Below are positions 41,372 through 61,337 of a stretch of 64,000 nt of DNA, piece after piece. The first letter of the stretch is position 1, and each line of letters starts with the position of its first letter. Both the position numbers and the translations under genes were made by a program. The notes under the pieces are model-generated. The model had not been told where the DNA came from, made no database searches, and saw only the letters and a list, made by a program, of their open reading frames with translations. This DNA comes from a virus. The stretch is taken from IMG/VR virus record IMGVR_UViG_3300032213_001813, positions 32,001 through 96,000 of that record; one strand, given 5' to 3'.

Positions 41372-41392
41372 ATGTTTTATTTAAAAACTTTA

Positions 41393-41458: not shown

Positions 41459-41476
41459 TAAAATATAAAATAAGTT

Positions 41477-42109
41477 ATGATAAATATTACCTATGCGGTT
41501 ACGGTTTGTAATGAGTTGGAAGAAATTACAAAACTAATAAATTTCCTACATCCAAGAATCAAATCAGAGGATGAAATATTAATACAATATGATTCGGATT
41601 CAACTACTGATGCTGTAAAACAATATCTACTGATTATATCTCAATTACACAACACAAATATTAGGGTTATATCATACCCACTTAACAACGATTTTGCTGC
41701 ATTCAAAAATAACTTAAAGGATAATGCAAATGGAATATTCATTTTTCAAATTGATGCAGATGAAATTCCATCCGAATATTTGGTAGAAAACCTTTCGGAT
41801 TTCATAGAATACAATAAAGATGTAGACCTTTTCTTTGTTCCTCGTATTAATACTGTTAGTGGATTAACACCAACGCATGTTAAGAAATGGGGATGGAATG
41901 TATCTCAAAATGGTTGGGTAAATTTTCCTGACTATCAAACTAGAATATATCGTAGAACATCTGAAATTGAATGGGTTGGTAACGTACATGAAAGAATAGT
42001 TGGTTATAATACACTTTCAGTATTACCCGCTGAAGAGGATTATTGTCTATATCATCCTAAACAAATCGAAAGACAGGAAAGACAAAACGCATATTACGAT
42101 ACACTATGA
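41477..42109 (+). CDS. GT2-family glycosyltransferase
   Basis: ITYAVTVCNE, IFQIDADE (DxD), FPDYQTRIY, VHE. Confidence 0.88.
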   Translation: MINITYAVTVCNELEEITKLINFLHPRIKSEDEILIQYDSDSTTDAVKQYLLIISQLHNTNIRVISYPLNNDFAAFKNNLKDNANGIFIFQIDADEIPSEYLVENLSDFIEYNKDVDLFFVPRINTVSGLTPTHVKKWGWNVSQNGWVNFPDYQTRIYRRTSEIEWVGNVHERIVGYNTLSVLPAEEDYCLYHPKQIERQERQNAYYDTL

Positions 42110-43086
42110 GAATAGCATTCTTAACTGAAATGGGATTTGTTGGTAAAATTCCAGCCAATCACCCAAATATGAGAACGGAGTTTGCTTGGATGCATGCGTT
42201 AGATGCTGACCACTATAACATTAGAAATATTGAAAATGTTAGGGATTATGAGCATGTGTTTGTTATATTCCCAAAAGGTAAATTATTTTTAAGTGCAGAG
42301 GGTAGTACGATACAAAATGGAGTAAACCCAATTTCAGATTTATTACAATTTCCGTTAATACAAACTCTAAAACAAAACAACTCAAAGGTACATTATGTGC
42401 AAGAAGGACCTCATTGGTGGTGGAATGATTATGAAATTTCAGACCAAATTGGATTCTATAATATGTTATCCGAATGTGATAGTATATTTGCCCATAACGA
42501 ATCCGATGTTCCCTATTATAAGGGGTTATTTCCTACCAAAGAAGTACAAAGTATCTATTCACTAATGATAGATGATTACGTCAAAGATATAGTACCAACT
42601 AAAGAGGATAAAGTAATCATTGGAGGTAACTTTGCAAGATGGTATGGTGGGTTTGAAAGTTATATGGTAGCTCAAAAGTTTGATGTACCAATTTGGGTGC
42701 AAGATTCGCATGCTAAAAGAGAGAACGAAGAGTATATGGATGGATTAAATCATCTACCAAGACTTATATGGAATGATTGGATGAGGGAATTATCAACTTA
42801 CAAATATGCAGTACATCTAATGCCAACGGTAGCAGCTGGTACATTCTCACTTAATTGTGCATACTTTGGAATTCCTTGTATTGGTAACATAGAAGTTGAT
42901 ACCCAACGATTATGTCATTCAGTACTATCGATTGATGTTAAGAATATAGATAAGGCTAAATCAATGGCTGGTTTATTGGCAAAAGATAAAGATTTTTATA
43001 ATAGTTGTAGTAGTTTGGCAAAAAGAAACTATGAAGAAAACTATTCATTAAAAGTTTGGACAGAAAGAATAAAAAAACACTTATGA
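42106..43086 (+). CDS. GT-B glycosyltransferase-like protein
   Basis: YAVHLMPTVAAGTFSLNCAYFGIPCIG resembles the GT-B nucleotide-binding region; sits among glycosyltransferase genes. Confidence 0.65.
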   Translation: MRIAFLTEMGFVGKIPANHPNMRTEFAWMHALDADHYNIRNIENVRDYEHVFVIFPKGKLFLSAEGSTIQNGVNPISDLLQFPLIQTLKQNNSKVHYVQEGPHWWWNDYEISDQIGFYNMLSECDSIFAHNESDVPYYKGLFPTKEVQSIYSLMIDDYVKDIVPTKEDKVIIGGNFARWYGGFESYMVAQKFDVPIWVQDSHAKRENEEYMDGLNHLPRLIWNDWMRELSTYKYAVHLMPTVAAGTFSLNCAYFGIPCIGNIEVDTQRLCHSVLSIDVKNIDKAKSMAGLLAKDKDFYNSCSSLAKRNYEENYSLKVWTERIKKHL

Positions 43087-43853
43087 TAACAGTTATATTA
43101 AATGGTTACAAAAGAGGGGAGAATCTAAATGAACAAATGGAAGCTCTCAAAAATCAAACACTACCACCCGATGAGATATTAGTATGGTATAACAATCCCG
43201 GTGATAATGATTTGATTAACTACGATATCGGTACGGAAGTTCCTGTTGCCTATTGTAATTACAACTTTGGAGTTTGGGCAAGATTTGGTTTTGCTATAAA
43301 TGCAAGAAATCCTTATGTATGTGTGTTTGATGATGATACCATTCCCGGTAAAAAATGGTTGGAGAATTGTATGAACACAATGAAAGAAGAGGAAGGATTG
43401 ATGGGAACTGTTGGATTATTATATCCAAATCCATTACCACCCGAACATTCATCTTACTACGAACACTACTTACGTTTTGGTTGGCCTGATTTGGGTAACA
43501 ATGATAAGAAAGTAGAAGTTGATTTAGTGGGGCATAGTTGGTTCTTTAAGAAAGAGTGGTTATCTCATTTCTTCAGAGAGTTACCTGACCCAAAATATAA
43601 TACTTGTGGTGAGGATATGCACTTTTCTTATATGCTACAAAAGTATGCTGGTATTAAAACATTTGTACCACCACACCCTCGTTCAGATATAGAATTATGG
43701 GGTAGCACTAAAGGTCCAACTTATGGGGGTGATGCTAACTCATTGTGGGAATCAAATCAAAGAAGTATAGATGGAATACCATTCAAAGAATTAATGAATG
43801 AGTATTTTCACAATCAACGTAAAAAAGGCTGGAAATTAGTAAATGAAAAATAA
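43083..43853 (+). CDS. GT-A (GT2-like) glycosyltransferase
   Basis: ITVILNGYKR, CVFDDDTIPG, VDLVGHSW, GED; start set at the ATGA overlap (43083). Confidence 0.8.
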   Translation: MITVILNGYKRGENLNEQMEALKNQTLPPDEILVWYNNPGDNDLINYDIGTEVPVAYCNYNFGVWARFGFAINARNPYVCVFDDDTIPGKKWLENCMNTMKEEEGLMGTVGLLYPNPLPPEHSSYYEHYLRFGWPDLGNNDKKVEVDLVGHSWFFKKEWLSHFFRELPDPKYNTCGEDMHFSYMLQKYAGIKTFVPPHPRSDIELWGSTKGPTYGGDANSLWESNQRSIDGIPFKELMNEYFHNQRKKGWKLVNEK

Positions 43854-44841
43854 ACCAATTTTAATATGTTTTGGTACTAGACCCGAATGGTTAAAAGTAA
43901 AACCACTAATTGATTTGATGCATAAAAACGAATATCGTTTATTATTTACAGGTCAACATATGGACTTACTTAAAGATGTACAAGTAGATTATCGAATAAA
44001 GATATCCGATAATTCAAATCGTTTAGATAGTGTAGTAAGTGATTGCTTATTACAATTTCCAAACGGAGATTTTAAAGGTGTTTTGGTGCAAGGTGATACT
44101 GCATCTGCTTTTGCGTGTGCATTGGCAGCATTTAATAGAGAACTCAAAATTTATTATATGGAAGCTGGATTGCGAAGCCACAACTTAAAACACCCATATC
44201 CTGAAGAAGCATATCGTCAAATGATTGCACGGATTTCCGATGTAAACTTTGCACCAACCAAACGTTCAGAAATGAATCTAAGAGATGAAAGTGTGAATGG
44301 TGCAATTTATGTGACAGGAAATACGGTATTGGATAACTTAACTAAATATGAAGCACCAACATATGGTAAGAAGATATTAGTTACATTACATCGTAGAGAG
44401 AATCATCACATAATGAAGGAGTGGTTTGAAGAGATTGATAAGTTAGCAACTGAATATTCAGATTACGAATTTATCTTACCAATACATCCAAATCCAAATG
44501 TACAAAAGCACAAAAACTTACTTAAAAATGTAAGTGTAGTTGAACCATTATCGCATGATGAAACTATGAAAATATTAAGAGAGTGTAGTTTGGTAATAAG
44601 TGATAGTGGTGGGTTACAAGAGGAAGGTACATTCTTTAATAAAAAGGTTATTGTATGTAGATTAACTACCGAAAGACCGGAAGGAATTGAAACAGGTCAC
44701 TTACATTTATGTGCCGAACCAAATAAATTAGAGGTTTTATTTGGAAATTTGATAAAAAAACCTTATCTTTACACAACCTGTCCCTATGGTGATGGTAAAG
44801 CTGCACAAAAAATTAAAAAAATATTAGATGAAGAACTTTAG
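43843..44841 (+). CDS. wecB: UDP-N-acetylglucosamine 2-epimerase (non-hydrolysing type)
   Basis: FGTRPE, TGQH, VQGDT, EAGLRS, TLHRRE, SDSGGLQEE, TERPE, YGDG. Confidence 0.95.
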   Translation: MKNKPILICFGTRPEWLKVKPLIDLMHKNEYRLLFTGQHMDLLKDVQVDYRIKISDNSNRLDSVVSDCLLQFPNGDFKGVLVQGDTASAFACALAAFNRELKIYYMEAGLRSHNLKHPYPEEAYRQMIARISDVNFAPTKRSEMNLRDESVNGAIYVTGNTVLDNLTKYEAPTYGKKILVTLHRRENHHIMKEWFEEIDKLATEYSDYEFILPIHPNPNVQKHKNLLKNVSVVEPLSHDETMKILRECSLVISDSGGLQEEGTFFNKKVIVCRLTTERPEGIETGHLHLCAEPNKLEVLFGNLIKKPYLYTTCPYGDGKAAQKIKKILDEEL

Positions 44842-45604
44842 AGAGCATTTTTCCAAATTCACCGAAATGATAAGAAACGATGAGCATTTTGCTTTCGCTA
44901 GATATTCGGATGGTGAATTATATATTTTACAAAATAAAGAGCTGGTATTAGACTCAAATCTAATTCAGATTGGAGACCAAAAGCAAGGTGGAGTTTATCA
45001 AGCTCCTGATTTCAAACACTATGACCCAAAAGAACATGGATTCTATCAACAAAAGTTAGTAGAAGCATATCAGTATAGACAACCAAATTACTACAAAGGT
45101 ATTAGTTGTAGTTGTTGCGTTGGTAAAGAAGCATTTGATTGGCAGATTGATTTACATGGTGGAGATGATGAGAGTTTAAGTTGGGCAAATCTATGGGTAA
45201 ACGGAAACTATCCTCAATTTATATTTCAGACCCTACCTATTTTTTATAGTAAGAATGTGGTAATGGTATGTAATGAAAATGCTAACTTAGATAAACTACC
45301 ATTTGTTATAAAAGATTTCAGAGTTGGGTATAACGCAATGATTAACGATTATGGCAAGATTGAAGACATCAAAAGCTGGATAAGAGATAATAACATAAAA
45401 AACCACCTATTCTTATTTTCAGCTTCAACATTCTCAAATTTGGCAATCTATGAATTGTTCAAAGAATTTCCTGAAAACTCTTATGTTGATATTGGAACTT
45501 GTTTGACACCAATGATGGATATGCCAACTGAAAGAGGTTACTTACAAGCATTTTGGAATTATAGAGGTGGGCAGGATATTCAAAAAGTATGTGTATGGAA
45601 TTAG
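44828..45604 (+). CDS. GT-D fold (DUF1792-like) glycosyltransferase
   Basis: FARYSDGE (DxE motif) and C-terminal LFLFSASTFSNLAIYEL...YVDIGT parallel the DUF1792 pattern. Confidence 0.6.
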   Translation: MKNFREHFSKFTEMIRNDEHFAFARYSDGELYILQNKELVLDSNLIQIGDQKQGGVYQAPDFKHYDPKEHGFYQQKLVEAYQYRQPNYYKGISCSCCVGKEAFDWQIDLHGGDDESLSWANLWVNGNYPQFIFQTLPIFYSKNVVMVCNENANLDKLPFVIKDFRVGYNAMINDYGKIEDIKSWIRDNNIKNHLFLFSASTFSNLAIYELFKEFPENSYVDIGTCLTPMMDMPTERGYLQAFWNYRGGQDIQKVCVWN

Positions 45605-45975
45605 TAGATTGTACAAAAAAGTATTGGGAGTTTGTTAGAAATCTCCGTAATGATGAAAGAGTTAAGGATGGTTTTATTAAATCAACTTACATCACCGAAG
45701 ATATGCAGGAAGCGTATATGACTGTTCACTACAAATATTATAGAATCGCATTGATTGATAATGCACCTGTTGGATATATTGGTGTGATTGATGATGATAT
45801 TCGTATATGTGTACATCCTGCGTTCCAAAAAAGAGGAGTTGGAAAGTTTATGATTGAGGAAGGTATGAAAATATGGCCTAATGCGGAGGGCAAAGTTAAG
45901 TTAGGTAATGAAGCAAGTATGAATCTTTTTAAATCTTGTGGATTCAAAGAAGCATATGTAATATTCAAAAAATGA
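45595..45975 (+). CDS. GNAT N-acetyltransferase (sugar N-acetylase-like)
   Basis: FVRNLRND, VGYIG, VHPAFQKRGVG, NEASMNLFKSCGF. Confidence 0.85.
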   Translation: MELVDCTKKYWEFVRNLRNDERVKDGFIKSTYITEDMQEAYMTVHYKYYRIALIDNAPVGYIGVIDDDIRICVHPAFQKRGVGKFMIEEGMKIWPNAEGKVKLGNEASMNLFKSCGFKEAYVIFKK

Positions 45976-46187
45976 TGACAAACTTAAAGAGTTCAATTAC
46001 AAAAAAAGGAAAATATGTTTCTCAAATACTACACTTTGTGGGAGGTGAGAAACGGACATTCAATAACGTAGATACAGAATCCATTAAGCAAGGACAGTTT
46101 ACTAAATTTGAAACAAAGGATGGTAGATTGGTAATGGTAAATGATAAAAATATACTTTGCATTGAAATAATTAAAGAAGAAGAATAA
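45972..46187 (+). CDS. Small hypothetical protein
   Basis: About 71 aa from the ATGA-overlap start. Confidence 0.55.
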   Translation: MMTNLKSSITKKGKYVSQILHFVGGEKRTFNNVDTESIKQGQFTKFETKDGRLVMVNDKNILCIEIIKEEE

Positions 46188-46188
46188 T

Positions 46189-46815
46189 ATGTTACACAAT
46201 CCATATAAAGTAGTAAGAATGTTTGAGGAGGAAATAGCTGCATATACCGGCGCTCCTTACGCTATTTCAATTGATAGTTGTACTAATGCATTGTTTCTAA
46301 TGTGTAAGTACAATGAAGTTAAAGAAGTAACCATCCCATCCAAAACGTATCTATCAGTACCACAATCAATTATACACGCTGGTGGTGAAGTTATCTTTGA
46401 TAAGAGACCTGAAACGAATCATTGGGTAGGTGCATACCAATTAAAACCATATCCAATTTGGGATGCGGCTAAGAGATTAACAAAGGATATGTACATGCCC
46501 GGAACATTTATGGGATTATCATTTCACATCAAAAAGATTCTTCCAATTTGGAAAGGTGGTATGATTCTAACTGATAACGCTGACGCAGCTGATTGGTTTA
46601 AGAAAGCTCGTTACGAAGGTAGAAGTGAAAAATATTACAAAGAAGATGATATCACATTCAATGGTTGGAATATGTATATGACTCCACAACAGGCAGCACA
46701 TGGATTGGCAATGTTTCAAAACCTACCACTACATAATTCGGACCAGGGTGAATTAAATGGTTATAGAGATTTAACCGAATTTACTGTATTCAAAAATAAT
46801 AAAGTTATAGAATAA
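46189..46815 (+). CDS. Shortened DegT/DnrJ/EryC1/StrS PLP aminotransferase
   Basis: FEEEIAAYTG, SCTNAL, WDAA, SFHIKKILPIWKGGMI (PLP Lys region), GWNMYM; only 208 aa. Confidence 0.8.
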   Translation: MLHNPYKVVRMFEEEIAAYTGAPYAISIDSCTNALFLMCKYNEVKEVTIPSKTYLSVPQSIIHAGGEVIFDKRPETNHWVGAYQLKPYPIWDAAKRLTKDMYMPGTFMGLSFHIKKILPIWKGGMILTDNADAADWFKKARYEGRSEKYYKEDDITFNGWNMYMTPQQAAHGLAMFQNLPLHNSDQGELNGYRDLTEFTVFKNNKVIE

Positions 46816-47795
46816 TGAAGGTAGTTAAACACTTTGGTGGAGATGCACCCTATGGTATTATACCATATATACAAACAATATTTGATAAATTATCAGATGA
46901 AAACTCAAACGATTTATTCTTTAATGGAGTTCAGTTTATAGATGCCCCATATATGTTAGGTCAATATGAGGAAACTGGTAGAAGAGCATTATTAGCACAT
47001 TGGTCTCCTTGTGAGTTTTTAGTAACTCCAAATTATTACTATTTGGATGCATATGAACACTTTACTGAAGTATATTGTGTTTGTCCATTTACTTGTGATT
47101 TTATGAACAAATACTATGGTTACGAAAAGTTTATATACGTTCCATATCCATATACAAATCATACATTAAAATCATTTGGAGAATATGATTCAGTATCTTC
47201 TTGGTTTGGTTCTATAAATGGAGATGAGCATGCTGGGGCAATTGATGTTATTAGTAAATTTCCTTACAAATATATTACATCACAGCAAAATACTTGGTTA
47301 CATCATCCATATGAATATAACAAATGTACGCATGTTAATATTTCAACGGAAGATAAATTGAAAGAAGTAAGTAAGTGCAAAAGTTCACTTACATTTAATA
47401 AATTGTACAAATCACCCAATAGTCAATACAATCCTGGTATTGAGGGTAACAAACTTAAAATTTGGGAGCATAAATCGGAGGAGATATTACCTCAATTTAA
47501 AGTAAGAACACATGAAATTGCAACTTGTAAATCATTAATACTATGTAAAAAAGACCCTTGGAATTTGATTGAGGATTTTTACGAACCTGATAAGGATTTC
47601 ATCTACTTTGATAACTTATCAGAATTAGAAGACATTTTACATGATGTGGATACTAACTTTGAAAAATATGTACCAATAATAGAAAGTGCATATCAGACGG
47701 TACAAAAATATTCAGTAGAGAATTTTTTTGAATTCGTAAAAACAAAAGACAAAAACTTAATAAATTGGAAAAATAAAAATTATGGCATACTTTAA
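46815..47795 (+). CDS. CgeB-like / GT-B glycosyltransferase
   Basis: QFKVRTHEIATCKSLIL...FYEPDKDFIYFDNLSEL resembles the Glyco_trans_1_2 C-terminal domain. Confidence 0.65.
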   Translation: MKVVKHFGGDAPYGIIPYIQTIFDKLSDENSNDLFFNGVQFIDAPYMLGQYEETGRRALLAHWSPCEFLVTPNYYYLDAYEHFTEVYCVCPFTCDFMNKYYGYEKFIYVPYPYTNHTLKSFGEYDSVSSWFGSINGDEHAGAIDVISKFPYKYITSQQNTWLHHPYEYNKCTHVNISTEDKLKEVSKCKSSLTFNKLYKSPNSQYNPGIEGNKLKIWEHKSEEILPQFKVRTHEIATCKSLILCKKDPWNLIEDFYEPDKDFIYFDNLSELEDILHDVDTNFEKYVPIIESAYQTVQKYSVENFFEFVKTKDKNLINWKNKNYGIL

Positions 47796-48789
47796 AGAAA
47801 AAAATGTATTAGTAACCGGCGGTACTGGACTTGTTGGTAGAGAATTAGTAGAACTATTGGTAAAAGATGGTGCAAAAGTTACATCAATATCATTGGATGA
47901 TAATAACTTTGAATCGGATTGGGATGTAAACTACATCAAAGGAGATATTAGAGATTTCCAAACTTGCGTAGATGTAGTTAAAGGACAACAATATGTATTC
48001 CACATTGCTGGTATCAAAGGTTCTCCTGTATTGGTAAAAGAATTACCTTATGTATTCTTTACTAACTTTATTCAAATGAACACATCTATGATTGCAGCTA
48101 TGAACGCATCTGAAGATATGGAGTGGGGATTGTACACATCAACGGTTGGAACTTATGGACCGGCTGATGTATTCTATGAAGATAAATTGTGGGACCAAAT
48201 GCCATCTCGTAATGATTGGTTCGCTGGTTGGTCAAAAAGAATGGGTGAGGTTATGATTGATGCATATCAACAACAAACTGGAAAGAGAAACATTTCAATT
48301 ATCAAACCTGTAAACATTTATGGTAAGTTTGATAACTTTGATTTAAGAACTTCAACTTTAATTCCATCATTGGTAAGAAAGATTTCAGAGGCAACTGATA
48401 CGGTTGATGTGTGGGGAACTGGGTTATCTAAAAGAGATATCATTCACGCTAGAGATGTTGCTAGAGCAGCAATGCATATGGTAGAACATAAAGTTGATTA
48501 TTCAGTAAACATTGGTAAAGGTGAAGGTATTACAATTAGAGAGGTTGTAGAAACTGCAATTAAAGTATCTGGAAAGAGTTTAGATGTTGTATTGGATTCT
48601 ACTAAACCAACTGGTGATGATGCTAGAGTTGCTAACATTGATAAATTAAATGGAACTGGTTTTGTTCCAACTGTATCATTGGAAGATGGGATTAGAGAAA
48701 CTTATGAATGGTATCAACAAAACAAAAATTACAATGGAAGATATGATGCTTTCCACACAAACGATTACACAAATAAAATAGAAGAATAA
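47782..48789 (+). CDS. NAD-dependent epimerase/reductase (extended SDR, Fcl/GME-like) 1
   Basis: VTGGTGLVG, HIAGIKG, AGWSKRMGE, NIYG, VWGTG. Confidence 0.9.
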   Translation: MAYFKEKNVLVTGGTGLVGRELVELLVKDGAKVTSISLDDNNFESDWDVNYIKGDIRDFQTCVDVVKGQQYVFHIAGIKGSPVLVKELPYVFFTNFIQMNTSMIAAMNASEDMEWGLYTSTVGTYGPADVFYEDKLWDQMPSRNDWFAGWSKRMGEVMIDAYQQQTGKRNISIIKPVNIYGKFDNFDLRTSTLIPSLVRKISEATDTVDVWGTGLSKRDIIHARDVARAAMHMVEHKVDYSVNIGKGEGITIREVVETAIKVSGKSLDVVLDSTKPTGDDARVANIDKLNGTGFVPTVSLEDGIRETYEWYQQNKNYNGRYDAFHTNDYTNKIEE

Positions 48790-49475
48790 TGGCATATTAC
48801 AATTGGTTTAATGAGTATTTTAAGGAGAAGCACAAAAACTCAACAACGGAAGAAATATTAGATGATGTATTTTTGATGTTAGAAAAAAGAGGTGGTGAAT
48901 ATTTGAAACACAACTATGAGAGTTATAAACAACTTTGGATTGACCCGCAAGAAGATATTGTGAATAGTAAACCACAAGTAATTCAGCAGATTAGAGAAGA
49001 GTTATATGATTTTCTTAAATTGTTAATTGAAAACAATGTTAAGAAGGTATTACAAATTGGATTGGGACACTTTGGTTCAACTCAATTTTGTTTAAGTTTG
49101 ATTTGTGATGAGATTGTTACTGTTGAGTATGATATTAAAAACATAGCAAATTACGCAAATAGAGAGTTATTATATAACCAAAACAAAGAGCATTTTATCT
49201 ATGGTGATTCTGCTGATGTTAATGTAATATCACAAGCTGCTAACTATGGTAGATTTGATGCAGTATTCATTGATGGTAATCATAGTTACGAATATGTTAA
49301 AAGTGATTACCAACACTATTCACCATTTGTAAAGCAAGGTGGTATTGTTGCATTTCACGATGCTTGTTTGGATGCAGATAGATATGGTACTCCAAAAGTT
49401 ATTTCAGAGTTACAAAGAGAGGTAACACTTATTAAACATTCAAACGAAGTTGGTATAGCTTATTACATTAATTAA
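48789..49475 (+). CDS. Class I SAM methyltransferase (Methyltransf_24-like)
   Basis: LQIGLGHFGS, FIDGNHSYEYVKSDY, GGIVAFHD. Confidence 0.85.
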   Translation: MAYYNWFNEYFKEKHKNSTTEEILDDVFLMLEKRGGEYLKHNYESYKQLWIDPQEDIVNSKPQVIQQIREELYDFLKLLIENNVKKVLQIGLGHFGSTQFCLSLICDEIVTVEYDIKNIANYANRELLYNQNKEHFIYGDSADVNVISQAANYGRFDAVFIDGNHSYEYVKSDYQHYSPFVKQGGIVAFHDACLDADRYGTPKVISELQREVTLIKHSNEVGIAYYIN

Positions 49476-49476
49476 T

Positions 49477-50442: not shown

Positions 50443-50446
50443 AATT

Positions 50447-51067: not shown

Positions 51068-51078
51068 AAATTAGAAAG

Positions 51079-51609: not shown

Positions 51610-51612
51610 ATT

Positions 51613-53660: not shown

Positions 53661-53671
53661 CAAAATAAATT

Positions 53672-54373
53672 ATGAATTTAATATTTGATATAGGTTACAA
53701 TGAAGGAGAATTTACTGAAGTTTGTTTTAGTAAATATCCAAACGCAAGTGTGATAGCGGTAGAAGCTAATCCAAATTTATGTAGTATGTTGAAAAGAGAA
53801 TTTTCGGTAAATTACAACTTTTTATTACTAAACAATTTAGTATCCAATGTTGTAGGTGAAGAAATTGATTTTTATATATCTCACGAATCAACCGGAGTAT
53901 CTACGGCATCTACCGAATTTATGAATAATTCCCGATTTACAAAGGGTAGTAAAAATGTAGGAGCTAATTCGGTAAATTGGGCACCTCCTGTTAAAATAGA
54001 ATCCATAACAATTGATTCTATGATTGAAACATATGGTATACCTGATTTAATTAAAATTGATGTTGAGGGGTATGAATATACTGTGTTAAGTGGATTAACT
54101 CAAAAAGCTAGTGATATTTGCTTTGAGTGGCATGAGGAAGAAAAGGATAGTTTATACAAAATATTAGACCATTTACAAAGTATAGGTTACACACAATTTG
54201 GTGTAATTGGGTGGTTTGATGAAGGTGATGTATTTCCAAAAGCAACATTTTCTGATAAGGGAGACCCTTATTTAGAATACCCAAAAAACTTCTATACTTT
54301 GGAAGAATTAGAATTAGATAAATTAATACAACCAGAAAGAAGAGTAAATTACGGAATGTTTTTTGCACGATAA
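53672..54373 (+). CDS. FkbM-family methyltransferase
   Basis: IFDIGYNEG, AVEANP, IKIDVEGYE, FEW. Confidence 0.9.
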   Translation: MNLIFDIGYNEGEFTEVCFSKYPNASVIAVEANPNLCSMLKREFSVNYNFLLLNNLVSNVVGEEIDFYISHESTGVSTASTEFMNNSRFTKGSKNVGANSVNWAPPVKIESITIDSMIETYGIPDLIKIDVEGYEYTVLSGLTQKASDICFEWHEEEKDSLYKILDHLQSIGYTQFGVIGWFDEGDVFPKATFSDKGDPYLEYPKNFYTLEELELDKLIQPERRVNYGMFFAR

Positions 54374-54386
54374 ATAAAAACAAATT

Positions 54387-55340
54387 ATGAATATAGAACA
54401 ATTTAAAAACAAAAAGATTTTAATTACTGGAGCAGGTGGGTTTGTTGGCAGTAATTTAGTTACTGAATTAAAAACTCAAGGATTTACAAACCTATTAACA
54501 CCAGCAACATCCGAACTTAATTTAATTAACCAATCGGAAGTTGAAAAATATTTTGAAGAAAATAAACCCGAAGTTGTATTACACATTGCTGGTTTGGTTG
54601 GTGGTATTGCGGCTAACAAAGCTAGACCAGGTGAGTTCTTCTACAACAATGCAATGGTTGGTATTAACATAACCCATTTTGCTTATAAATACGGAGCAGA
54701 AAAAGTGGTATCCTTAGCAGCGGGTTGTGGTTATCCAAAAGAAATACCCGTACCATTTTCGGAAGATGATTTTTGGAATGGATTACCTGATATGAATTCT
54801 TATGGATATTCATTGGCTAAGAAAAACTTAATAGTACAGGGTTGGGCATATAAACAACAATATGGATTTAATACAACGGTATTGATTCCTGCTAACTTAT
54901 ACGGACCTTATGATAACTTCCATTTAGAAAATTCGCATGTTGTACCAGCGTTGATTAGAAAGTTTTTGGCAGCTAAAGAATCCAACTCACCAACTGTTGA
55001 AGTTTGGGGAACTGGTAAAGCAACTAGAGAATTCCTTTTTGTAGATGATACGGTTAGAGCAATCATAGATGCTATGGCTTGTGATGAAGTAGGTCCTTTT
55101 AATTTGGGAACTGGTGTTGAGACATCTATCAAAGAATTAAACGAAACCATAGCTAAATTAATAGGTTATGAAGGTGAGATTGTTTGGGATACAACTAGAC
55201 CGGATGGACAACCTAAGAGATTCTATGATATGAGTAAATTTAAAGAAACATTTGGTTATGTACCATCAACTCCATTAGAGGATGGATTGAAAAAAACAAT
55301 TGATTGGTATTTGAACAATAAAGAAACCGCTAGATTATAA
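54387..55340 (+). CDS. fcl: GDP-L-fucose synthase-like epimerase/reductase (Fcl/ColC)
   Basis: TGAGGFVG, AGLVGGIAAN, YGYSLAK, NLYGPYDNF...SHVVPALIRKF, WGTGKATREF, DGQP. Confidence 0.9.
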   Translation: MNIEQFKNKKILITGAGGFVGSNLVTELKTQGFTNLLTPATSELNLINQSEVEKYFEENKPEVVLHIAGLVGGIAANKARPGEFFYNNAMVGINITHFAYKYGAEKVVSLAAGCGYPKEIPVPFSEDDFWNGLPDMNSYGYSLAKKNLIVQGWAYKQQYGFNTTVLIPANLYGPYDNFHLENSHVVPALIRKFLAAKESNSPTVEVWGTGKATREFLFVDDTVRAIIDAMACDEVGPFNLGTGVETSIKELNETIAKLIGYEGEIVWDTTRPDGQPKRFYDMSKFKETFGYVPSTPLEDGLKKTIDWYLNNKETARL

Positions 55341-56131
55341 TGAAAGAAATTAATTTAAAATATGAGATACCACAAAATGTAACCAAAGCTAGAATAGATG
55401 TGGGCATGTGTATGACATCCCCACATGCGGCTTTATGGTTTCATAAATATGATAATATATGTGTTATTGGTGTAGAACCAAATCCATATAATTACGAAAG
55501 ATTATTTGATGGTGAAAACGGAATAAATGATTACAAAGTGGTAGTAAACGAAAATGCAGTAAAAATAAATAATGAAACTGTATGTAATTATGTTGAAAAG
55601 GGTAATTACTTTTTTCCAATTGAAGCCGCAATTGATAATGTGGATGAGGTTTGTACAAAAACATTCTATTGTACATCAATGTTAAATACAGGATGTTCAT
55701 CTTTGCATAAACCAATAGATGGTTCAGCTGGATTGAATGGTGTTACTACTGAAAGTGAGGTTGATGTAAATGTTATTTCATTGAAAATGGTATTAGATAA
55801 TTTTCCTTGGGATAGAATACCTGCAATAGAATTATTAAAAACCGATACTCAATCAAACGATTTGAATGTAATCAAAAGTTGTAAAGAGTATTTAAGTAAA
55901 ATATGTTTTATACATTCTGAATATTATGCACATTCTTCATACGATGGTGAAAAATCACAAAATGAATGCTTTGTAGAGTTTGACAATTATATGAAAGAAA
56001 ATAATTTTAGATGTTATTATAATAGTGCTACTGATGCTAGTTATATAAACAACGATTTATTAGAATACATATTTGCAAACAGCGTACTCAATGATGTGTT
56101 TGAATTTCAAAATGGTTATAATTTTATATAA
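55340..56131 (+). CDS. FkbM-like methyltransferase 2
   Basis: RIDVGM, GVEPNP, GCSSL, LLKTDTQSND, SEY. Confidence 0.75.
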   Translation: MKEINLKYEIPQNVTKARIDVGMCMTSPHAALWFHKYDNICVIGVEPNPYNYERLFDGENGINDYKVVVNENAVKINNETVCNYVEKGNYFFPIEAAIDNVDEVCTKTFYCTSMLNTGCSSLHKPIDGSAGLNGVTTESEVDVNVISLKMVLDNFPWDRIPAIELLKTDTQSNDLNVIKSCKEYLSKICFIHSEYYAHSSYDGEKSQNECFVEFDNYMKENNFRCYYNSATDASYINNDLLEYIFANSVLNDVFEFQNGYNFI

Positions 56132-56134
56132 AAT

Positions 56135-57112
56135 ATGAAGAGAGTTTTAATTACAGGTGGAGCTGGTTTTATTGGTTCGCATCTTACAAAAAGATTAGTT
56201 AAAGAAGGTTACAATATTACGGTAATCGATAATTTGGAAAGAGGTAAGGCTGAATTTATATCAGATGTAATAAATGATATTAAATTTGTTCAAGCTGATT
56301 TAAGAGTTTGGGATGATGTAAAGGATTTGTTTTTAGATAAGGATATAATAATCCACTTAGCTTCTAAAGTTGGTGGTATTGGTACTTACTTATCTAAACC
56401 ATATGATGTGATGAACGCTAATATGGAAATGGACAGTAACGTATTAAGGGGTATCATTGAAAATAAAATCACTAAATACTTTTACGCATCATCAGCACAC
56501 ATTTATCCAAAGGAATTGCAAACGATAGCCGATTCTCCAATGATTAAAGAATCAGATGCATATCCAGCCAATCCAGAACTAACATATGGTTGGGCAAAGT
56601 TAATTGGTGAAAAGGCAATTGAATCTGCGGTAGTTGAGTATGATTGGATGAATGTAGCAATTGCAAGATTCATTGGTATCTACGGACCAAATCAAGATTT
56701 CCAATTAGAGACAGGTTCGGTTATTCCGGTGTTTTCACATAGAGGTGTGAAGTATCCCGAAGTACCATTTAGAATTTGGGGAACTGGAACTGAAACCCGT
56801 TCGTATTGTTTCATTGAAGATGCATTGGATTGTATTCAAAAAATGGTTGAAGCATTGGATACTAAGCAATTGGTTGGACCTTACAATGTTGGAAAGGGTG
56901 AGAGATGTACCATATCAGATATAGCAGAGACTGTTGTTGATATTAGTGGTAAATACATCCAAATAGAATACGATACAACAAAGAACACAGTAATTTGGGG
57001 ACAGTGGTGTGATTGTAGTTTAGTAAAAGAAGAGTTGGGATGGGAAGCAAAGACTTCGTTGAGAGAGGGATTGGAAGTAGTATATAACGATATAAAAAAT
57101 AGATTAGTATGA
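56135..57112 (+). CDS. GDP-mannose 3,5-epimerase-like SDR
   Basis: TGGAGFIG, HLASKVGG, YASSA, DAYPANPELTYGWAK, WGTGTETRSY. Confidence 0.8.
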   Translation: MKRVLITGGAGFIGSHLTKRLVKEGYNITVIDNLERGKAEFISDVINDIKFVQADLRVWDDVKDLFLDKDIIIHLASKVGGIGTYLSKPYDVMNANMEMDSNVLRGIIENKITKYFYASSAHIYPKELQTIADSPMIKESDAYPANPELTYGWAKLIGEKAIESAVVEYDWMNVAIARFIGIYGPNQDFQLETGSVIPVFSHRGVKYPEVPFRIWGTGTETRSYCFIEDALDCIQKMVEALDTKQLVGPYNVGKGERCTISDIAETVVDISGKYIQIEYDTTKNTVIWGQWCDCSLVKEELGWEAKTSLREGLEVVYNDIKNRLV

Positions 57113-58053
57113 GCAAAGAAAAAGTTTTAATTACCGGCGGTGCTGGGTATTTAGGTTCTACATTAACGGAGCACCTATTAAATGAAGGTTATTCAGTAAC
57201 GGTATTGGATAATCTATCTTACAAACAATTATCACTATTACACCTTTTCAAAAGAGAAGGTTTTAAATTTGAGATGGGTGATGTAAGAAACAAAGAATTA
57301 CTACAAAAGTTAGTAGGGGAGCATGATGTGATTATTCCATTAGCTGCAATCGTTGGAATGCCGGCATGTAAAGCAAACCCTGATTTGACAATAGCAGTAA
57401 ATTATCAGCAGGTAGTTGATGTGATTGAAGTCCTAAGAGATAACCAAAAGTTAATCTTACCAAATACTAATTCACAATATGGTTCATCTGATTCAATCAT
57501 TACCGAAGACTCACCATTTAATCCATTATCATTATACGCAGAAACAAAATGTAATGCGGAGAATGCTTTATTAGCAAATGGAAATGGTGTATCATTGAGA
57601 TTGGCAACGGTGTTTGGTGTATCACCTCGAATGAGACAGGATTTGTTGGTAAATGATTTCGTTTATAAAAGTGCAGTAGATGGTTACTTAGTGTTGTTTG
57701 AAGGACACTTTAAGAGAAACTACATTCACGTTCAGGACATAGCTAGAACATTCCAATTCATCATTGAGAATTATGATGCTTGTAAGGGCGAGGCATTCAA
57801 CGTAGGATTATCAACTGCTAACTTATCAAAGTTGGAATTGGCAGAAAAGATTAAATCACATATACCATCTTTGGTTATTAAGGAAGATGATTTCAAAGAA
57901 GATTTTGATAAAAGAAACTATATCGTATCAAATGATAAGTTAGAGAGTAGAGGTTGGAAACCTATTTACGATTTAGATTATGGTATCAAACAATTGTTAG
58001 AAGCATACAAAGTAATTATTAAATATAACAACAAAAACTTTACAAATTTATAA
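57109..58053 (+). CDS. NAD-dependent epimerase/dehydratase (extended SDR) 5
   Basis: TGGAGYLG, PLAAIVG, YAETK, LRLATVFG. Confidence 0.9.
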   Translation: MSKEKVLITGGAGYLGSTLTEHLLNEGYSVTVLDNLSYKQLSLLHLFKREGFKFEMGDVRNKELLQKLVGEHDVIIPLAAIVGMPACKANPDLTIAVNYQQVVDVIEVLRDNQKLILPNTNSQYGSSDSIITEDSPFNPLSLYAETKCNAENALLANGNGVSLRLATVFGVSPRMRQDLLVNDFVYKSAVDGYLVLFEGHFKRNYIHVQDIARTFQFIIENYDACKGEAFNVGLSTANLSKLELAEKIKSHIPSLVIKEDDFKEDFDKRNYIVSNDKLESRGWKPIYDLDYGIKQLLEAYKVIIKYNNKNFTNL

Positions 58054-58054
58054 T

Positions 58055-58459
58055 ATGGAAGAGAGAAAATATTTACCAACATTAAGTGAATTGATTGATA
58101 GATTATCTATTGTTCAATTAAAAGAAGTATTCATTACAGACCACAAAGCAGAATATGCTGAAGAGATTGCAGCAATTGTGCATGATATTCAATTGTATTT
58201 GGATGAGAGTACGGAAGCTGTAACTGCCGAAACTATTAGAGCAGTTGTAGTTCTTTCACAAATGAACTTACATATTTGGCATAATGAATCCAACTATCGT
58301 AAAGGAATCAGAGATGGTAACAACTTGGAATTAACACATGGATTAAATGGTATTCGTAACGTAGCTAAGAACAAAATCCAAGAGGTGAATGGTGGTAGAA
58401 AAGATTACAAAATTGATTGCTTAGCAGCAGAATTTAAAGATTGGGAAATTAGTTGGTAA
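58055..58459 (+). CDS. All-helical hypothetical protein within the sugar operon
   Basis: 134 aa; TLSELIDRLSI...IWHNE...RN pattern. Confidence 0.6.
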   Translation: MEERKYLPTLSELIDRLSIVQLKEVFITDHKAEYAEEIAAIVHDIQLYLDESTEAVTAETIRAVVVLSQMNLHIWHNESNYRKGIRDGNNLELTHGLNGIRNVAKNKIQEVNGGRKDYKIDCLAAEFKDWEISW

Positions 58460-58460
58460 T

Positions 58461-59213
58461 ATGAATATATTAGTTATAGGAGATAGTTGTATTGATGTTT
58501 ATGTTTATGGTAAAGCAGATAGACTTTGCCCTGAAGCACCCGTTCCTGTGTTTATCCCTAAAAGGGAGACACGGACGGGTGGTATGGCAGCTAATGTATT
58601 TGAAAACATAGAATCATTGGAAGTGGACGTTCATTTAGTTACCAATGAGAATCCGGTAACTAAAACCCGATATGTGGAAGAAAAGACAAATCACCAAATC
58701 ATACGAATAGATTCCGAAACATCCGCTATCCCAAGAATTAAAAATTTGGATAAGATTAAGTTTGAGGATTATGATGCAGTTATTATATCGGACTACAATA
58801 AAGGGTTATTAACATATGAAGATATTCAGTTCATTTGTAAATCACATCCATCGGTTTTCATAGATACTAAAAAGATTGTCAATGAATATATGTTAGATGC
58901 CAAATTCATTAAGATAAACGAATACGAATATGCAAACAACATAGCAGCTGGACAGTATTTCAAAGAGTTCTATGATAAGTTAATTGTAACTATGAGTGGA
59001 AAGGGATGTAAGTATATGGAAACCGAATACAATGTAGATGAGGTGGAGGTTAGAGATAATAGTGGAGCTGGTGATACATTCATATCAGGTTTAGTAGTTG
59101 AGTGGTGTAGGAGTGGTGATATTGGTAAAGCAATATTATACGCAAACGAATGTGCTACGATAGTGGTACAACACAAAGGAGTAACAAAAGTAGGAAATTA
59201 TATTAAGAAATGA
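58461..59213 (+). CDS. HldE/RfaE-type heptose-7-phosphate kinase domain (PfkB family), stand-alone
   Basis: VIGDSCID, RLCPEAPVPV, GGMAANV, SDYNKG, DNSGAGDTF; no nucleotidyltransferase domain. Confidence 0.88.
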   Translation: MNILVIGDSCIDVYVYGKADRLCPEAPVPVFIPKRETRTGGMAANVFENIESLEVDVHLVTNENPVTKTRYVEEKTNHQIIRIDSETSAIPRIKNLDKIKFEDYDAVIISDYNKGLLTYEDIQFICKSHPSVFIDTKKIVNEYMLDAKFIKINEYEYANNIAAGQYFKEFYDKLIVTMSGKGCKYMETEYNVDEVEVRDNSGAGDTFISGLVVEWCRSGDIGKAILYANECATIVVQHKGVTKVGNYIKK

Positions 59214-60442
59214 CAAAGAACCAACCAATAAGTTTTATTATACCCTGCCGAAATAACTTACCTTATTTAAAGCAGGCAGTTAGTAGTATTGAAAAACACT
59301 ATGGAACATATCACCACATCATTATATTAGATGATGCATCAACCGATGGTACTTGGGAGTGGATAAACTCGTTAGAGGGAGAACACTATACAAAATATCG
59401 TAATGAATCATCAGATAGAGTTGGACATACAGTTTTATATGATGTTGGTATTAAATTGGCAACAACACCGATTGTTACAATTTTACATTCGGATATGGTA
59501 GTTACTGAAAACTATGTTGGTAATATGTTAAAGCACCTAAAACCGATGACGGTAGTGAGTGCTACTCGTATAGAACCACCACTACACCCACCGGGACCCG
59601 AAAAGTATGTAATGAACTTTGGATTGGAAGTTGATGAATTTTTTGCAAAAGAAGATGCATTTACACACTTTGTTGCTACATTGGAAACTCAAAATGAAGG
59701 GTTGGTAACATATGGTATATTTGCACCTTGGATGTTATACAAAGAAGATTTTACATCAATAGGTGGACATGATTTATTGTTTGCACCTATGGAGTTGGAA
59801 GATTCGGATATATTCAATAGAATGGATTTAGCTGAATATAAGTTGGTACAAAGTAGAGATGCATTTGTATATCATATGACTTGTAGAGGTAGTAGATTCA
59901 AAGATGGTATTGAAATTGAAAGAGAGATACCACTACCGGATGGAACAATTTGGTACAAACCCAAAGATTCGGTAGAATATACAAAATTAAGAGAGAATAA
60001 GTTCAGAGAGTGGTGGAGAAAATGGCATACAAATGTGTTGCACGATGATAATATGCTACCAATAGTACCAAATAGATATGATACTACGTTTGTAATTATA
60101 AATTGTACACCACAATTACTTTCTGTATTAGAACCTTGGTGTGATAGAATATATGTAGATTGTGAATATAATTCCTATATTGAAAGTGAAAGTAAAGAAA
60201 CTATGTTTGATATATCTAAAAAAGTTTATTCGGTAAATGATGAATTGTTTGGAGATGTGGTAGTTAAATTTGATGGTTCTAAATTAACGCAAGAACATTA
60301 TCAGCAATTTATTATGAATCTGCCATTTGTAATTCAACAAAACGATTCAGTTGGTACATTTGATTGGGATATATTTGAAATAGAGATATATAAATTAACA
60401 ACAAAAGATATGATTAAGCCATTCTTTAAAAACGTATTTTAA
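59210..60442 (+). CDS. GT2-family glycosyltransferase
   Basis: SFIIPCRN, ILDDASTDGT, LHSDM, IGGHD, EDSD. Confidence 0.9.
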   Translation: MTKNQPISFIIPCRNNLPYLKQAVSSIEKHYGTYHHIIILDDASTDGTWEWINSLEGEHYTKYRNESSDRVGHTVLYDVGIKLATTPIVTILHSDMVVTENYVGNMLKHLKPMTVVSATRIEPPLHPPGPEKYVMNFGLEVDEFFAKEDAFTHFVATLETQNEGLVTYGIFAPWMLYKEDFTSIGGHDLLFAPMELEDSDIFNRMDLAEYKLVQSRDAFVYHMTCRGSRFKDGIEIEREIPLPDGTIWYKPKDSVEYTKLRENKFREWWRKWHTNVLHDDNMLPIVPNRYDTTFVIINCTPQLLSVLEPWCDRIYVDCEYNSYIESESKETMFDISKKVYSVNDELFGDVVVKFDGSKLTQEHYQQFIMNLPFVIQQNDSVGTFDWDIFEIEIYKLTTKDMIKPFFKNVF

Positions 60443-60443
60443 A

Positions 60444-61337
60444 ATGAAAAAAAGAACATTAGTTTGCATACACGTAATGCCATCCGAATTAGAGATGTTT
60501 GAACGATTTATGCAACAATATCATAAAGCATTTCAATATTTGGATGAGAACGATGATGTGACACTTAAAGTAACACTTAACTTAAATCCAGAACTAACTG
60601 ATTGGGATAACAGTGAATTTAAGCAAGGATATTTTGTTGCAAGATTTGGTGTATTATTCAATGGTGTTAAAAATATAAATGAGGTAATATTAGATACATC
60701 ATGTTGGGGAACTACACAACAAAAAAGAGAAAGTTATAAGTTAGATTATGACCAATTTATATTTGTGGATACTGATATTTTGATGCATGAGCATATGTTA
60801 AAATATCAATTAAATGTATCTTATCAATTGGATGGTATTTACATATTATCACCATCATTACCAAAATGGTGGGATGATAGTTGGGAGGATTTATGCCATT
60901 CTGATTACAAAGATAAGCCATATGGTTATGCTATGGATGATAAAGGGGTTGCTGATAACACATTGGTTCAAGAAATAAAAGCTGTAACTGCAAGAGAAAT
61001 CGCAACTATTAAATTTGGATGTGGTATGCATACTCTATACTCTAAATCATTTTGGGAATTGGTTGGTATACCTGAATCATTTAAAGGTTATGGACCTGAA
61101 GATACATACGGAATGGCGGCATCAACGGTAGGTAATAAGTTGGGAGCTGGTATTAGACAATTTGTGTTAGATGGGGTGTATATTACCGAAGATTATTTTA
61201 ATAGAACTCCATCATATTCGGATAAAATTAAACCAATTGATAAAAAGAAAGAGTTTTATGATGCCGCACATGAATTGGGACAGGAAGAGGTAAAGAAATT
61301 TGTAGCAAAACTTATCGAAAATCAATCGAATAATTAA
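60444..61337 (+). CDS. GT-A-like glycosyltransferase
   Basis: FIFVDTDI (DxD) and GYGPED. Confidence 0.6.
   Translation: MKKRTLVCIHVMPSELEMFERFMQQYHKAFQYLDENDDVTLKVTLNLNPELTDWDNSEFKQGYFVARFGVLFNGVKNINEVILDTSCWGTTQQKRESYKLDYDQFIFVDTDILMHEHMLKYQLNVSYQLDGIYILSPSLPKWWDDSWEDLCHSDYKDKPYGYAMDDKGVADNTLVQEIKAVTAREIATIKFGCGMHTLYSKSFWELVGIPESFKGYGPEDTYGMAASTVGNKLGAGIRQFVLDGVYITEDYFNRTPSYSDKIKPIDKKKEFYDAAHELGQEEVKKFVAKLIENQSNN

Follow-up and report, generated by a model that had tools for sequence, protein, structure and literature searches.

A phage locus of about 30 soluble sugar-synthesis and glycosyltransferase genes enclosing a collagen-like fibre gene: a candidate virion-glycosylation system

We analysed a 64,000-nucleotide (nt) stretch of viral DNA (the window; bases 32001–96000 of the 188,016-bp IMG/VR virus record IMGVR_UViG_3300032213_001813, the whole of which was also scanned) that carries a large operon for glycan synthesis at 41477–61337; positions are those of the window unless a genome position is named. 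The record is supported as a phage genome by tail sheath, tube, fibres, PolB, clamp loader, UvsX and ribonucleotide reductase: the first 32 kb of the genome hold tail genes (a 1780-residue fibre, sheath, tube and a hub-like protein) and the window holds a T4-like replication module (UvsX, DnaB-type helicase, ribonucleotide reductase, the family-B polymerase PolB, clamp loader and exonucleases). The genome is 97% complete (CheckV), and the GC content of the window is 0.34, with GC and skew even along its length. A bacterial contig misassembled into the phage, which a first-pass annotation of the letters alone had named as a way in which its reading could fail, is excluded, since synteny holds across more than 17 contigs and in the genomes of two cultured phages, and since GC and skew are uniform. 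Comparisons were made with the near-identical relatives G001 (207 kb, complete) and G002 and with the distant relatives G003, G004, Microcystis phage Mel-JY01 as well as vB_FspM_immuto (immuto), a phage of Flavobacterium. We infer that the glycosylation locus is larger than the operon, starting at 36790 with a second transcription unit and comprising ~30 genes over 24.5 kb (Table 1).

The operon consists of exactly 25 open reading frames (ORFs) on the same strand, as the first-pass annotation had counted, with overlaps of 1–40 nt at 13 junctions. Families were called with Pfam and NCBIfam profiles, to which PHROGs, PDB sequence searches, Atlas language-model neighbours and AlphaFold2 (AF2) models with Foldseek were added. 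Where about eight glycosyltransferases had been proposed, six are supported by Pfam or fold, 42106 and perhaps 60444 are putative, and two further GT-B enzymes lie upstream. The 42106 protein (64–70% identical within the 80%-identity clade) is GT1-like by language-model neighbours only, with no match in Pfam, the PDB or PHROGs, and the GT2 enzyme at 41477 has a weak likeness to the SunS peptide S-glycosyltransferase (E 2e-4). The proposed GT-D enzyme, 44828, is upheld by its fold: the AF2 model (predicted local distance difference test score, pLDDT, 86) has three DUF1792 structures as its top Foldseek matches (4phr, 4pfx and 5v4a; Z 15.3–15.6, ~202 residues aligned, root-mean-square deviation 3.2–3.4), compared with Z 10 for TagA/TarA and a background of Z ~4. 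An S-D-G-E (DXE-type) motif is invariant in the 44828 family, and there was no match to DUF1792 in Pfam, none in PDB sequence searches (single sequence and profile) and none in PHROGs. Pfam or NCBIfam also recovered the five extended short-chain dehydrogenases/reductases (SDRs; 47782, 49477, 54387, 56135 and 57109) and the WecB, GNAT, thiamine-diphosphate (ThDP) pair, three methyltransferases, GT2 and GT11 of the first reading, WecB alone in the operon passing an equivalog cut-off. Of its two DegT-fold enzymes, 51613 is full length and scores 183 bits for RfbH and 174 bits for PseC, each under its cut-off, whereas 46189 is a conserved 208-residue short form (91–99% identical in relatives; 214 residues in immuto) in which the aminotransferase fold is matched in the N-terminal part only. 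Similarly its ‘heptose kinase’ is a PfkB-family kinase whose likeness to HldE (133 bits) falls below the cut-off of 345. No nucleotidyltransferase was matched by Pfam or NCBIfam among those operon and flanking proteins that were scanned.

The upstream unit (unit 1) contains a pair of GT-B enzymes, 37048 and 38437, both of which keep the EX7E motif. The first is 49–60% identical in G003, G004 and Mel-JY01; the second is 42% identical in immuto and has the chlorovirus enzyme B736L (3oy2) as its best fold match, followed by retaining GT4 enzymes, and E291 is invariant and E299 nearly invariant in its family (414 clusters at 50% identity, E<=1e-30). Beyond chlorovirus B736L the pair look like generic retaining GT4 enzymes, a likeness that does not indicate the acceptor. 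The idea that they are an analogue of GtfA/GtfB with an inactive partner was ruled out, as both keep EX7E and there is no family match (no NCBIfam match to GtfA/GtfB at E<=1e-3 for 37048 or 38437, and no GtfA entry among the listed fold matches of 38437). Three representatives of the 38437 family (P0143, P0145 and P0154, 809–900 residues) have double the length and two matching stretches each, indicating fused double-GT-B forms. The place of the small ORF at 39731 is filled in all relatives by an ORF of 139–194 residues (34–64% identical; 152 residues in immuto). It is followed by a collagen-like protein, 40312, with 180 Gly-X-Y residues in which X is mostly Thr or Ser and Y mostly Ser. The tail module encodes two further, giant fibres with this type of repeat (3225 and 2086 residues), so that the genome has three Gly-(Thr/Ser)-Ser proteins with ~1,590 repeat residues between them, two thirds of which are Ser or Thr. 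The C-terminal ~130 residues of the 2086-residue fibre (G000:C1:18133-24393) look by eye like the self-cleaving intramolecular chaperone domains known from phage tail spikes and fibres. Outside the locus there is a PLOD-type protein, 26893, whose best PDB matches are the Mimivirus R699 collagen glucosyltransferase (E 6e-17) and then human LH3, and in which the PLOD domain stands alone without a lysyl hydroxylase domain; this predicted transferase possibly shares the function of the locus.

Both the terminator and the tandem promoters that had been noted ahead of the operon were found (Table 1). The 34-nt TATATTTATATATAC box has only two copies in the genome (36790–36823 and 41391–41424), which suggests that unit 1 and the operon (unit 2) are co-regulated beyond the general TATATTTATA motif. 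The TATATTTATA core occurs 18 times on the plus strand of the whole genome and never on the minus strand; the full core precedes the sheath gene by 66 nt and the giant fibre gene by 47 nt, and TATTTATA is placed 25–35 nt ahead of the start codon in the tail tube gene and in several other genes of the tail module and was not found in the intergenic regions of the replication genes (15785–36760). From these positions the TATATTTATA/TATTTATA box is read as a phage-specific late-type promoter. The second element, of TTTGG-N18-GTATCTTTGTA type, has 14 copies on the genome’s coding strand and none in the tail module (four in the window as against none in 100 shuffles), and it fits the −33 TTTG/−7 TAnnTTTG consensus of Flavobacterium and Bacteroides promoters (PMC7641319). 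The 25-gene operon thus seems to be served by two promoters, one host-type and one late-type, and the GT pair and fibre gene by a late-type one only. In 15 of 15 relatives the GT2 gene has the late-type box upstream, and in nearly all of them also the −7-type GTATATTTGTA, these elements being kept while the surrounding sequence, and sometimes the upstream gene, differs. Elsewhere in the window a host-type promoter and a TATATTTATA box stand in tandem, in the reverse order, at 14819–14869 before a 278-residue ORF at 14937. On the conserved downstream flank of the operon a 488-residue DUF5661 protein (61380–62846; E 1e-14) follows its own TATATTTATA box at 61343; it is only 63–75% identical between near-identical phages, far more variable than its neighbours.

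Table 1. Features of the glycosylation locus and of a PLOD-type gene outside it (aa, amino acids; positions in the window)
Position	Strand	Feature	Support
26893–27681	+	PLOD-type collagen glycosyltransferase domain protein, outside locus	PF25342 E 1e-29, 103.7 bits (cut-off 27)
36790–36823	+	Late-type promoter-like box, TATATTTATATATAC..., heads unit 1	34 nt, near-identical to box at 41391
36827–37030	+	67-aa ORF, first gene of unit 1	Upstream of GT pair in all relatives examined; no Pfam or PHROG match
37048–38433	+	GT-B (GT4-like) glycosyltransferase, 461 aa, lineage core	phrog_2170; chlorovirus B736L 3oy2 best PDB sequence match, E 2e-10
38437–39729	+	Second GT-B glycosyltransferase, 430 aa, lineage core	AF2 pLDDT 95, GT-B fold; phrog_2170
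39731–40249	+	172-aa conserved ORF between GT pair and fibre	No Pfam, NCBIfam or PHROG match
40312–41316	+	334-aa proline-free collagen-like protein, Gly-(Thr/Ser)-Ser triplets, candidate glycan acceptor	Pfam Collagen E 3e-22; tail-fibre PHROGs
41335–41368	+	Intrinsic-terminator-like hairpin closing unit 1	15-pair stem, then T run
41391–41460	+	Tandem promoters of 25-gene operon: late-type box 41391–41424, Bacteroidota sigma-A-type TTTGG-N18-GTATCTTTGTA 41427–41460	
41477–42109	+	GT2 glycosyltransferase, 210 aa, lineage core	PF00535 E 2e-8; 38–47% identical in G003, G004, Mel-JY01
42106–43086	+	Putative GT1-like transferase, 326 aa	Atlas neighbours are viral ‘glycosyl transferase family 1’ clusters, score 0.99–1.0
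43056–43853	+	GT2 glycosyltransferase, 265 aa	PF00535 E 5e-8
43843–44841	+	WecB, non-hydrolysing UDP-GlcNAc 2-epimerase (makes UDP-ManNAc)	TIGR00236 239 bits (cut-off 210); PF02350 E 2e-66
44828–45604	+	GT-D (DUF1792-like) glycosyltransferase, 258 aa	AF2 fold
45589–45975	+	GNAT acetyltransferase, 128 aa	PF13508 and PF00583, E 2e-9 to 5e-9
45936–46187	+	83-aa ORF, no assigned function	84–100% identical in relatives; no Pfam or PHROG match
46189–46815	+	Short DegT-like protein, 208 aa	PF01041 E 3e-20, profile positions 23–90; phrog_3139
46815–47795	+	GT-B-like transferase (Glyco_trans_1_2), opens swapped module	PF13524 E 1e-7; 31% identical in G001
47782–48789	+	Extended SDR (nucleoside-diphosphate-sugar epimerase/reductase/dehydratase)	PF01370 E 2e-37; missing from G001
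48789–49475	+	Methyltransferase (Methyltransf_24/CmcI-like)	PF13578 E 4e-12; PF04989 E 2e-6
49477–50442	+	Extended SDR	PF01370 E 5e-38
50447–51609	+	ThDP pair: E1-alpha-like 50447–51067, Transket_pyr 51079–51609	PF00676 E 5e-15; PF02779 E 1e-9
51613–52800	+	Full-length DegT-family pyridoxal-phosphate enzyme (RfbH/PseC-like), ends swapped module	PF01041 E 5e-69
52800–53660	+	GT11 (alpha-1,2-fucosyltransferase family)	PF01531 E 1e-24
53672–54373	+	FkbM methyltransferase	TIGR01444 80 bits, above cut-off
54387–55340	+	GDP-L-fucose-synthase-like SDR	NF047922 299 bits (cut-off 500), full length
55340–56131	+	FkbM methyltransferase, replaced by another in G001	PF05050 E 4e-9
56135–58053	+	Two extended SDRs, 56135–57112 and 57109–58053	PF01370 E 7e-46, 2e-36
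58055–58459	+	134-aa ORF, no assigned function	No match in Pfam, NCBIfam, PDB or PHROGs
58461–59213	+	PfkB-family sugar(-phosphate) kinase, HldE-domain-I-like	PF00294 E 7e-18; TIGR02198 133 bits (cut-off 345)
59210–60442	+	GT2 with ~200-aa C-terminal extension, lineage core, closing ‘bookend’	PF00535 E 6e-17
60444–61337	+	297-aa ORF, possibly transferase, last gene	Atlas neighbours are viral hypothetical clusters only; no PHROG match

A search with the first GT-B protein (37048) gave 277 related IMG/VR stretches. In all 17 related contigs with enough downstream sequence (the 80–100%-identity clade) a collagen-like, Ser/Thr-rich ORF of 332–961 residues lies between the small ORF and the GT2 gene. 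The common order, which includes immuto and Mel-JY01, is nuclease, small ORF, GT-B, GT-B, small ORF and GT2, with a second GT2 gene closing the locus (37% identical in G003/G004 and 45% identical to the last transferase of the immuto locus). Between these GT2 bookends there are from two or three genes (GT2 and FkbM in G003) to ~20 here, and the interval from the nuclease to the DUF5661 gene is 6.2–24.6 kb in relatives. The four transferases (GT-B pair, GT2 and closing GT2) look like an old core, kept as far as immuto and Mel-JY01. In G001 the segment 46815–52800 (GT-B-like transferase, SDR, methyltransferase, SDR, ThDP pair and DegT enzyme) and 55340 are missing, and a hexapeptide acyltransferase, a GT1, a GT-B-like protein and another FkbM are carried instead. 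As this module is swapped between flanks that are 96–100% identical, the locus behaves like a serotype cassette, in line with the early suggestion of a cassette that varies while its flanks are conserved. Cultured phages gave no megablast match to the operon. When distant members of the GT-B family were tested for linkage to a fibre gene, P0209 gave one contig, without a collagen-like gene nearby, and P0268 was not in IMG/VR. In six relatives (L108, L095, L106, L084, L085 and L114) an ORF of ~530 residues follows the collagen-like gene and precedes the GT2 operon; the one that was scanned (L108:11993-13591) is an S8 subtilase (PF00082, E 9e-34) and may serve as a protease for fibre maturation.

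All of the ~30 locus proteins are soluble, and genes for export and for initiation on a lipid carrier are absent from the 97%-complete genome. No operon ORF reaches 1.6 in any 19-residue Kyte–Doolittle window, and by this crude method the genome-wide maximum is four hydrophobic segments per protein, the four-segment protein at genome 185085–186320 having a coiled coil and an acidic tail and being neither Wzx- nor Wzy-like. The scan of the genome gave no candidate polytopic protein for a WecA/MraY-type enzyme, flippase, polymerase, ligase or ABC-2 permease and none for GtrA/GtrB/GtrC-type membrane proteins, and genome-wide searches for Bac_transf (PF02397) initiating transferases and for Wzx (PF01943) were empty although control genomes did match. 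The first-pass annotation had seen neither a polytopic membrane protein nor an initiating transferase in the operon, and this now holds genome-wide. A whole-genome search found no tyrosine integrase, and the phage looks strictly lytic, as had been supposed.

Our best reading, to which we give about even weight for and against, is that a soluble phage-encoded system working in the cytoplasm glycosylates proteins of the phage’s own virion, with the proline-free Gly-(Thr/Ser)-Ser collagen-like fibres as the foremost candidates for acceptor. This was also the proposal of the first-pass annotation, to which the fibre gene, the tail-type promoter box, the GT-D fold and the PLOD-type transferase have been added; its description of the glycan as ‘O-antigen-like’ was a guess. 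Virion glycosylation is favoured because all locus proteins are soluble and there is no Bac_transf, Wzx or integrase; because a Ser/Thr-rich collagen-like gene lies inside the locus in 17 of 17 relatives; because the locus has a promoter box that also stands before sheath, tube and fibre genes; because the GT-D fold matches enzymes that extend the O-glycans of a serine-rich protein; because the window holds a PLOD-type collagen glycosyltransferase whose nearest solved relative is Mimivirus R699; because both GT-B proteins are nearest to a chlorovirus enzyme in the PDB; and because the module swap mirrors the gene clusters of Megavirinae. Several observations weigh against it. The operon carries a host-type, presumably early, promoter, and the promoter role of the late-type box is deduced from position only. 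Among the locus transferases there is no family proven to prime protein Ser/Thr: besides the GtfA/GtfB searches described above, TibC/BAHT (TIGR04414) and GT9 (PF01075) had no match in the genome. Soluble GT2, GT4 and GT11 enzymes and WecB are, moreover, equally typical of lipid-linked O-antigen or capsule assembly. Finally, immuto has the conserved transferase core yet no collagen-like protein, and contig L132 keeps the GT pair and a homologue of 60444 (30% identical, beside the GT pair in this distant phage contig) with no collagen-like gene within 10 kb.

Some of these points would fit remodelling of the host envelope, in which the enzymes build on host undecaprenyl-phosphate intermediates that are primed and exported by the host, altering lipopolysaccharide, capsule or the Bacteroidota general O-glycan, for example against superinfection or grazing. 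The content of the operon (WecB, GT2, GT4-like, GT11, DegT, SDRs and FkbM) is that of an O-antigen or capsule locus, soluble transferases normally act on host-primed, host-flipped lipid-linked acceptors, a host-type promoter stands directly before the operon, and the islands of the cyanomyoviruses S-SCSM2R and P-SSM2 have been read in this way (PMC12801897). The fold of 44828 is related to that of TagA/TarA, which act on lipid-linked acceptors, but it is nearer to GT-D (Z 15.5 as against Z 10). Since no membrane or lipid-carrier step is encoded in 188 kb, no integrase was found in what looks like a strictly lytic phage, and the locus has a tail-gene promoter box and encloses a fibre gene, we regard envelope remodelling as a serious alternative, if a rather improbable one.

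The occurrence of the core without a collagen-like gene in immuto and L132 means that the fibre cannot be the universal acceptor; it may be just one of several acceptors, or may have been added later. That glycosylation is specific to the fibre is a tentative proposal, which we would sooner doubt than accept. Mel-JY01 has a 1016-residue fibre of Gly-(Thr/Ser)-Ser type at the start of its genome, with no such gene embedded in its GT locus, and immuto has other large Ser/Thr-rich proteins that look structural. The latter, like a transferase core that is older than the embedded fibre and is also found in its absence, would suit a different cytoplasmic acceptor or product, namely a non-fibre virion protein, an inactivated host protein, or a free oligosaccharide or glycolipid released at lysis. 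A precedent is provided by mycobacteriophages, in which, as summarised at second hand, glycosylation is placed on the C-termini of capsid and tail-tube proteins and not on fibres (Freeman 2023, cited in PMC12619734). No specific candidate for such an acceptor was found, however, and the strict linkage of the collagen-like gene in the 80–100%-identity clade would then need a separate explanation, so we think a product of this kind rather improbable.

The position of the locus at the end of the replication module and next to a PD-(D/E)XK nuclease raises the further question of whether the transferases glycosylate a modified base in the phage DNA as protection against restriction; phage DNA can bear oligosaccharides, as in the poly-arabinosyl-5hoC of RB69. 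A thymidylate-synthase homologue is required in the known routes to hydroxymethyl- and hydroxy-pyrimidines (bioRxiv 10.1101/2025.06.16.659550), and none (PF00303) was matched in the genome although control genomes did match; TET/JBP (PF12851) also had no match, with the control genomes equally silent. In immuto, which has a syntenic locus, liquid chromatography–mass spectrometry of virion DNA gave canonical dA, dC and dT, with dG replaced by fdPreQ1 and no glycosylated base (PMC10516641). Both results make DNA glycosylation unlikely, and no known DNA glycosylation system comes anywhere near ~30 genes with several rare-sugar pathways; we consider this explanation very improbable indeed.

Under the virion-glycosylation reading the transcription units, sugar pathways, acceptor and role (shielding, stability or adhesion) that we infer would be as follows. 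Unit 1 (36790–41368), from the tail-gene promoter box, would co-express the two GT-B enzymes, the 172-residue protein and the 334-residue fibre, and unit 2 (41391–61337), from the same box and the host-type promoter, would make unusual nucleotide sugars. WecB would supply UDP-ManNAc, and the Fcl-like 54387 with GT11 would lead to a fucose-type 6-deoxyhexose (GDP-fucose-like), for which, as no clear Gmd is encoded, the 4-keto intermediate would come from an SDR here or from the host. The swapped module (two SDRs, the CmcI-like methyltransferase, the ThDP pair and the RfbH/PseC-like DegT enzyme) might yield an aminated, 3-deoxygenated or two-carbon-branched sugar; the ThDP pair we take to be a predicted two-carbon branch-adding enzyme, after AviB1/AviB2-type sugar-branching enzymes. 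The PfkB kinase and neighbouring SDRs could provide a heptose-type or other phosphosugar branch. The GT2, GT-D, GT11 and GT1-like transferases would then extend the glycan, the GNAT (by N-acetylation) and two FkbM methyltransferases would tailor it, and exchange of the middle sugar-supply module between strains would give phage ‘glycotypes’. As a tentative generalization, in which we have less than even confidence, this would be an extremely abundant clade of aquatic Bacteroidota myoviruses that put strain-variable heteroglycans of bacterial type, made wholly in the cytoplasm, on proline-free Gly-Thr/Ser-Ser collagen-like virion fibres, and the sugars may replace hydroxyproline as stabilizers of the triple helix. 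Such a system, with its swapped cassettes, would be the phage equivalent of fibril glycosylation in Megavirinae.

The host is probably a Flavobacterium-like member of the Bacteroidota, the phylum named at first reading, because the promoter type, the Flavobacterium phage relatives and the 34% GC point that way. Those relatives for which a Bacteroidota host is recorded are phages of Flavobacterium, and the GT-B and closing GT2 proteins match immuto at 42–45% identity. A cyanobacterial host, suggested by PolB, whose best match among cultured phages is Mel-JY01 (51%), was rejected on the promoter type and the Flavobacterium phage relatives. A search of genome contigs with WecB for a donor or host gave a single match, in an Actinomycetota metagenome-assembled genome (38% identical), which is uninformative. 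Mel-JY01 itself (PP395634), which is reported to infect Microcystis, has GTATATTTGTA (−7 TAnnTTTG-type) ~40–60 nt upstream of locus position 30244, before its GT cluster, and its core GT proteins are akin to those of Flavobacterium phages; no mention of this phage was found in the literature, and it may be worth checking the host given for it, for instance for a Bacteroidota companion in a xenic culture. Outside the window the genome also carries four flavin-dependent ‘tryptophan halogenase’ paralogues (phrog_2928; 499–525 residues, G000:C1:133378-143758, L032:378-10758) in two adjacent pairs, each match at E<=1e-99, cargo that is unusual in phages.

Should the virion carry the glycan, tailed phages that infect environmental bacteria would be counted with giant viruses and mycobacteriophages among the makers of their own surface glycans, with a toolbox far larger than in any known phage and with serotype-like variation between near-identical strains. 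Host recognition, particle stability, grazing and the way in which ‘auxiliary metabolic’ sugar genes of viromes are read would all be touched by this. In public metagenomes the GT-B protein family forms at least 7,987 clusters at 90% identity, which makes the lineage ecologically important, and as two cultured relatives, immuto and Mel-JY01, carry the conserved core the question can be put to the test at the bench.

Of the known systems, the fibril clusters of Megavirinae (Mimivirus, Moumouvirus and Tupanvirus) have in common with this locus rare bacterial-type nucleotide-sugar pathways, several glycosyltransferases and methyl or acyl tailoring (PMC10117803; PMC9614988). They comprise 6–33 genes between conserved flanks, are clade-specific and include a DUF1792-like transferase (PMC10117803); they likewise lack membrane export genes, and their product coats the particle fibrils. 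The Megavirinae, however, are eukaryotic giant viruses whose glycans have been chemically characterized, whereas this is a tailed phage of a bacterium, and the candidate acceptor here is a proline-free Gly-Thr/Ser-Ser collagen-like fibre. The mycobacteriophages reportedly have two to three transferases that use host sugar nucleotides, whereas ~9–11 transferases and ~15 sugar-synthesis or tailoring genes are present here. The likeness, according to the secondary account cited above, is in soluble phage-encoded transferases that act on the phage’s own structural proteins in the cytoplasm. The islands of T4-like cyanomyoviruses (P-SSM2, S-SCSM1 and S-SCSM2R) similarly bring together GT2, GT11, GT1 and nucleoside-diphosphate-sugar epimerases, amounting in S-SCSM2R and P-SSM2 to 13 glycosyltransferases and 22 cell-wall genes and read as host surface modification, but they belong to phages of cyanobacteria, include KdsA/KdsB and the export protein PgaA, and have no embedded fibre gene reported (PMC12801897).

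In bacteria a close parallel is the streptococcal Fap1 system (GtfA/GtfB, Gtf3 and dGT1), where a GT-B pair, a GT-D enzyme and a Ser-rich repeat protein share a locus, glycosylation is stepwise and cytoplasmic, and characterized GT-D enzymes extend the O-glycan of the serine-rich adhesin (PMC5063993, PMC5207161). Here, in contrast, the GT-B pair is without the GtfA/GtfB signature and keeps both EX7E motifs, there is no accessory Sec, and the substrate would be a Gly-X-Y repeat. With Wzx/Wzy- or ABC-dependent O-antigen and capsule loci this operon shares its nucleotide-sugar genes and several transferases in one operon; the membrane proteins and temperate lifestyle of Gtr serotype conversion were not found. 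Another close parallel is the locus of immuto, which has the PD-(D/E)XK nuclease, small ORF, two GT-B genes, small ORF, GT2, variable sugar module and closing GT2, but which is of ~11 kb and 13 genes, with no collagen-like protein and with a sugar module of WecE, a mannosyltransferase and an acetyltransferase; no paper was found that assigns this locus a function. The first-pass annotation was right that the concept has precedent, but its suggestion that the combination was new to phages is too strong in view of the immuto locus and the cyanomyovirus islands (PMC12801897). What is distinctive is the size, ~30 genes over 24.5 kb, together with a four-transferase core that bookends a swappable sugar module, the lack of a TibC-type enzyme, the abundance of the lineage, and an enclosed fibre gene.

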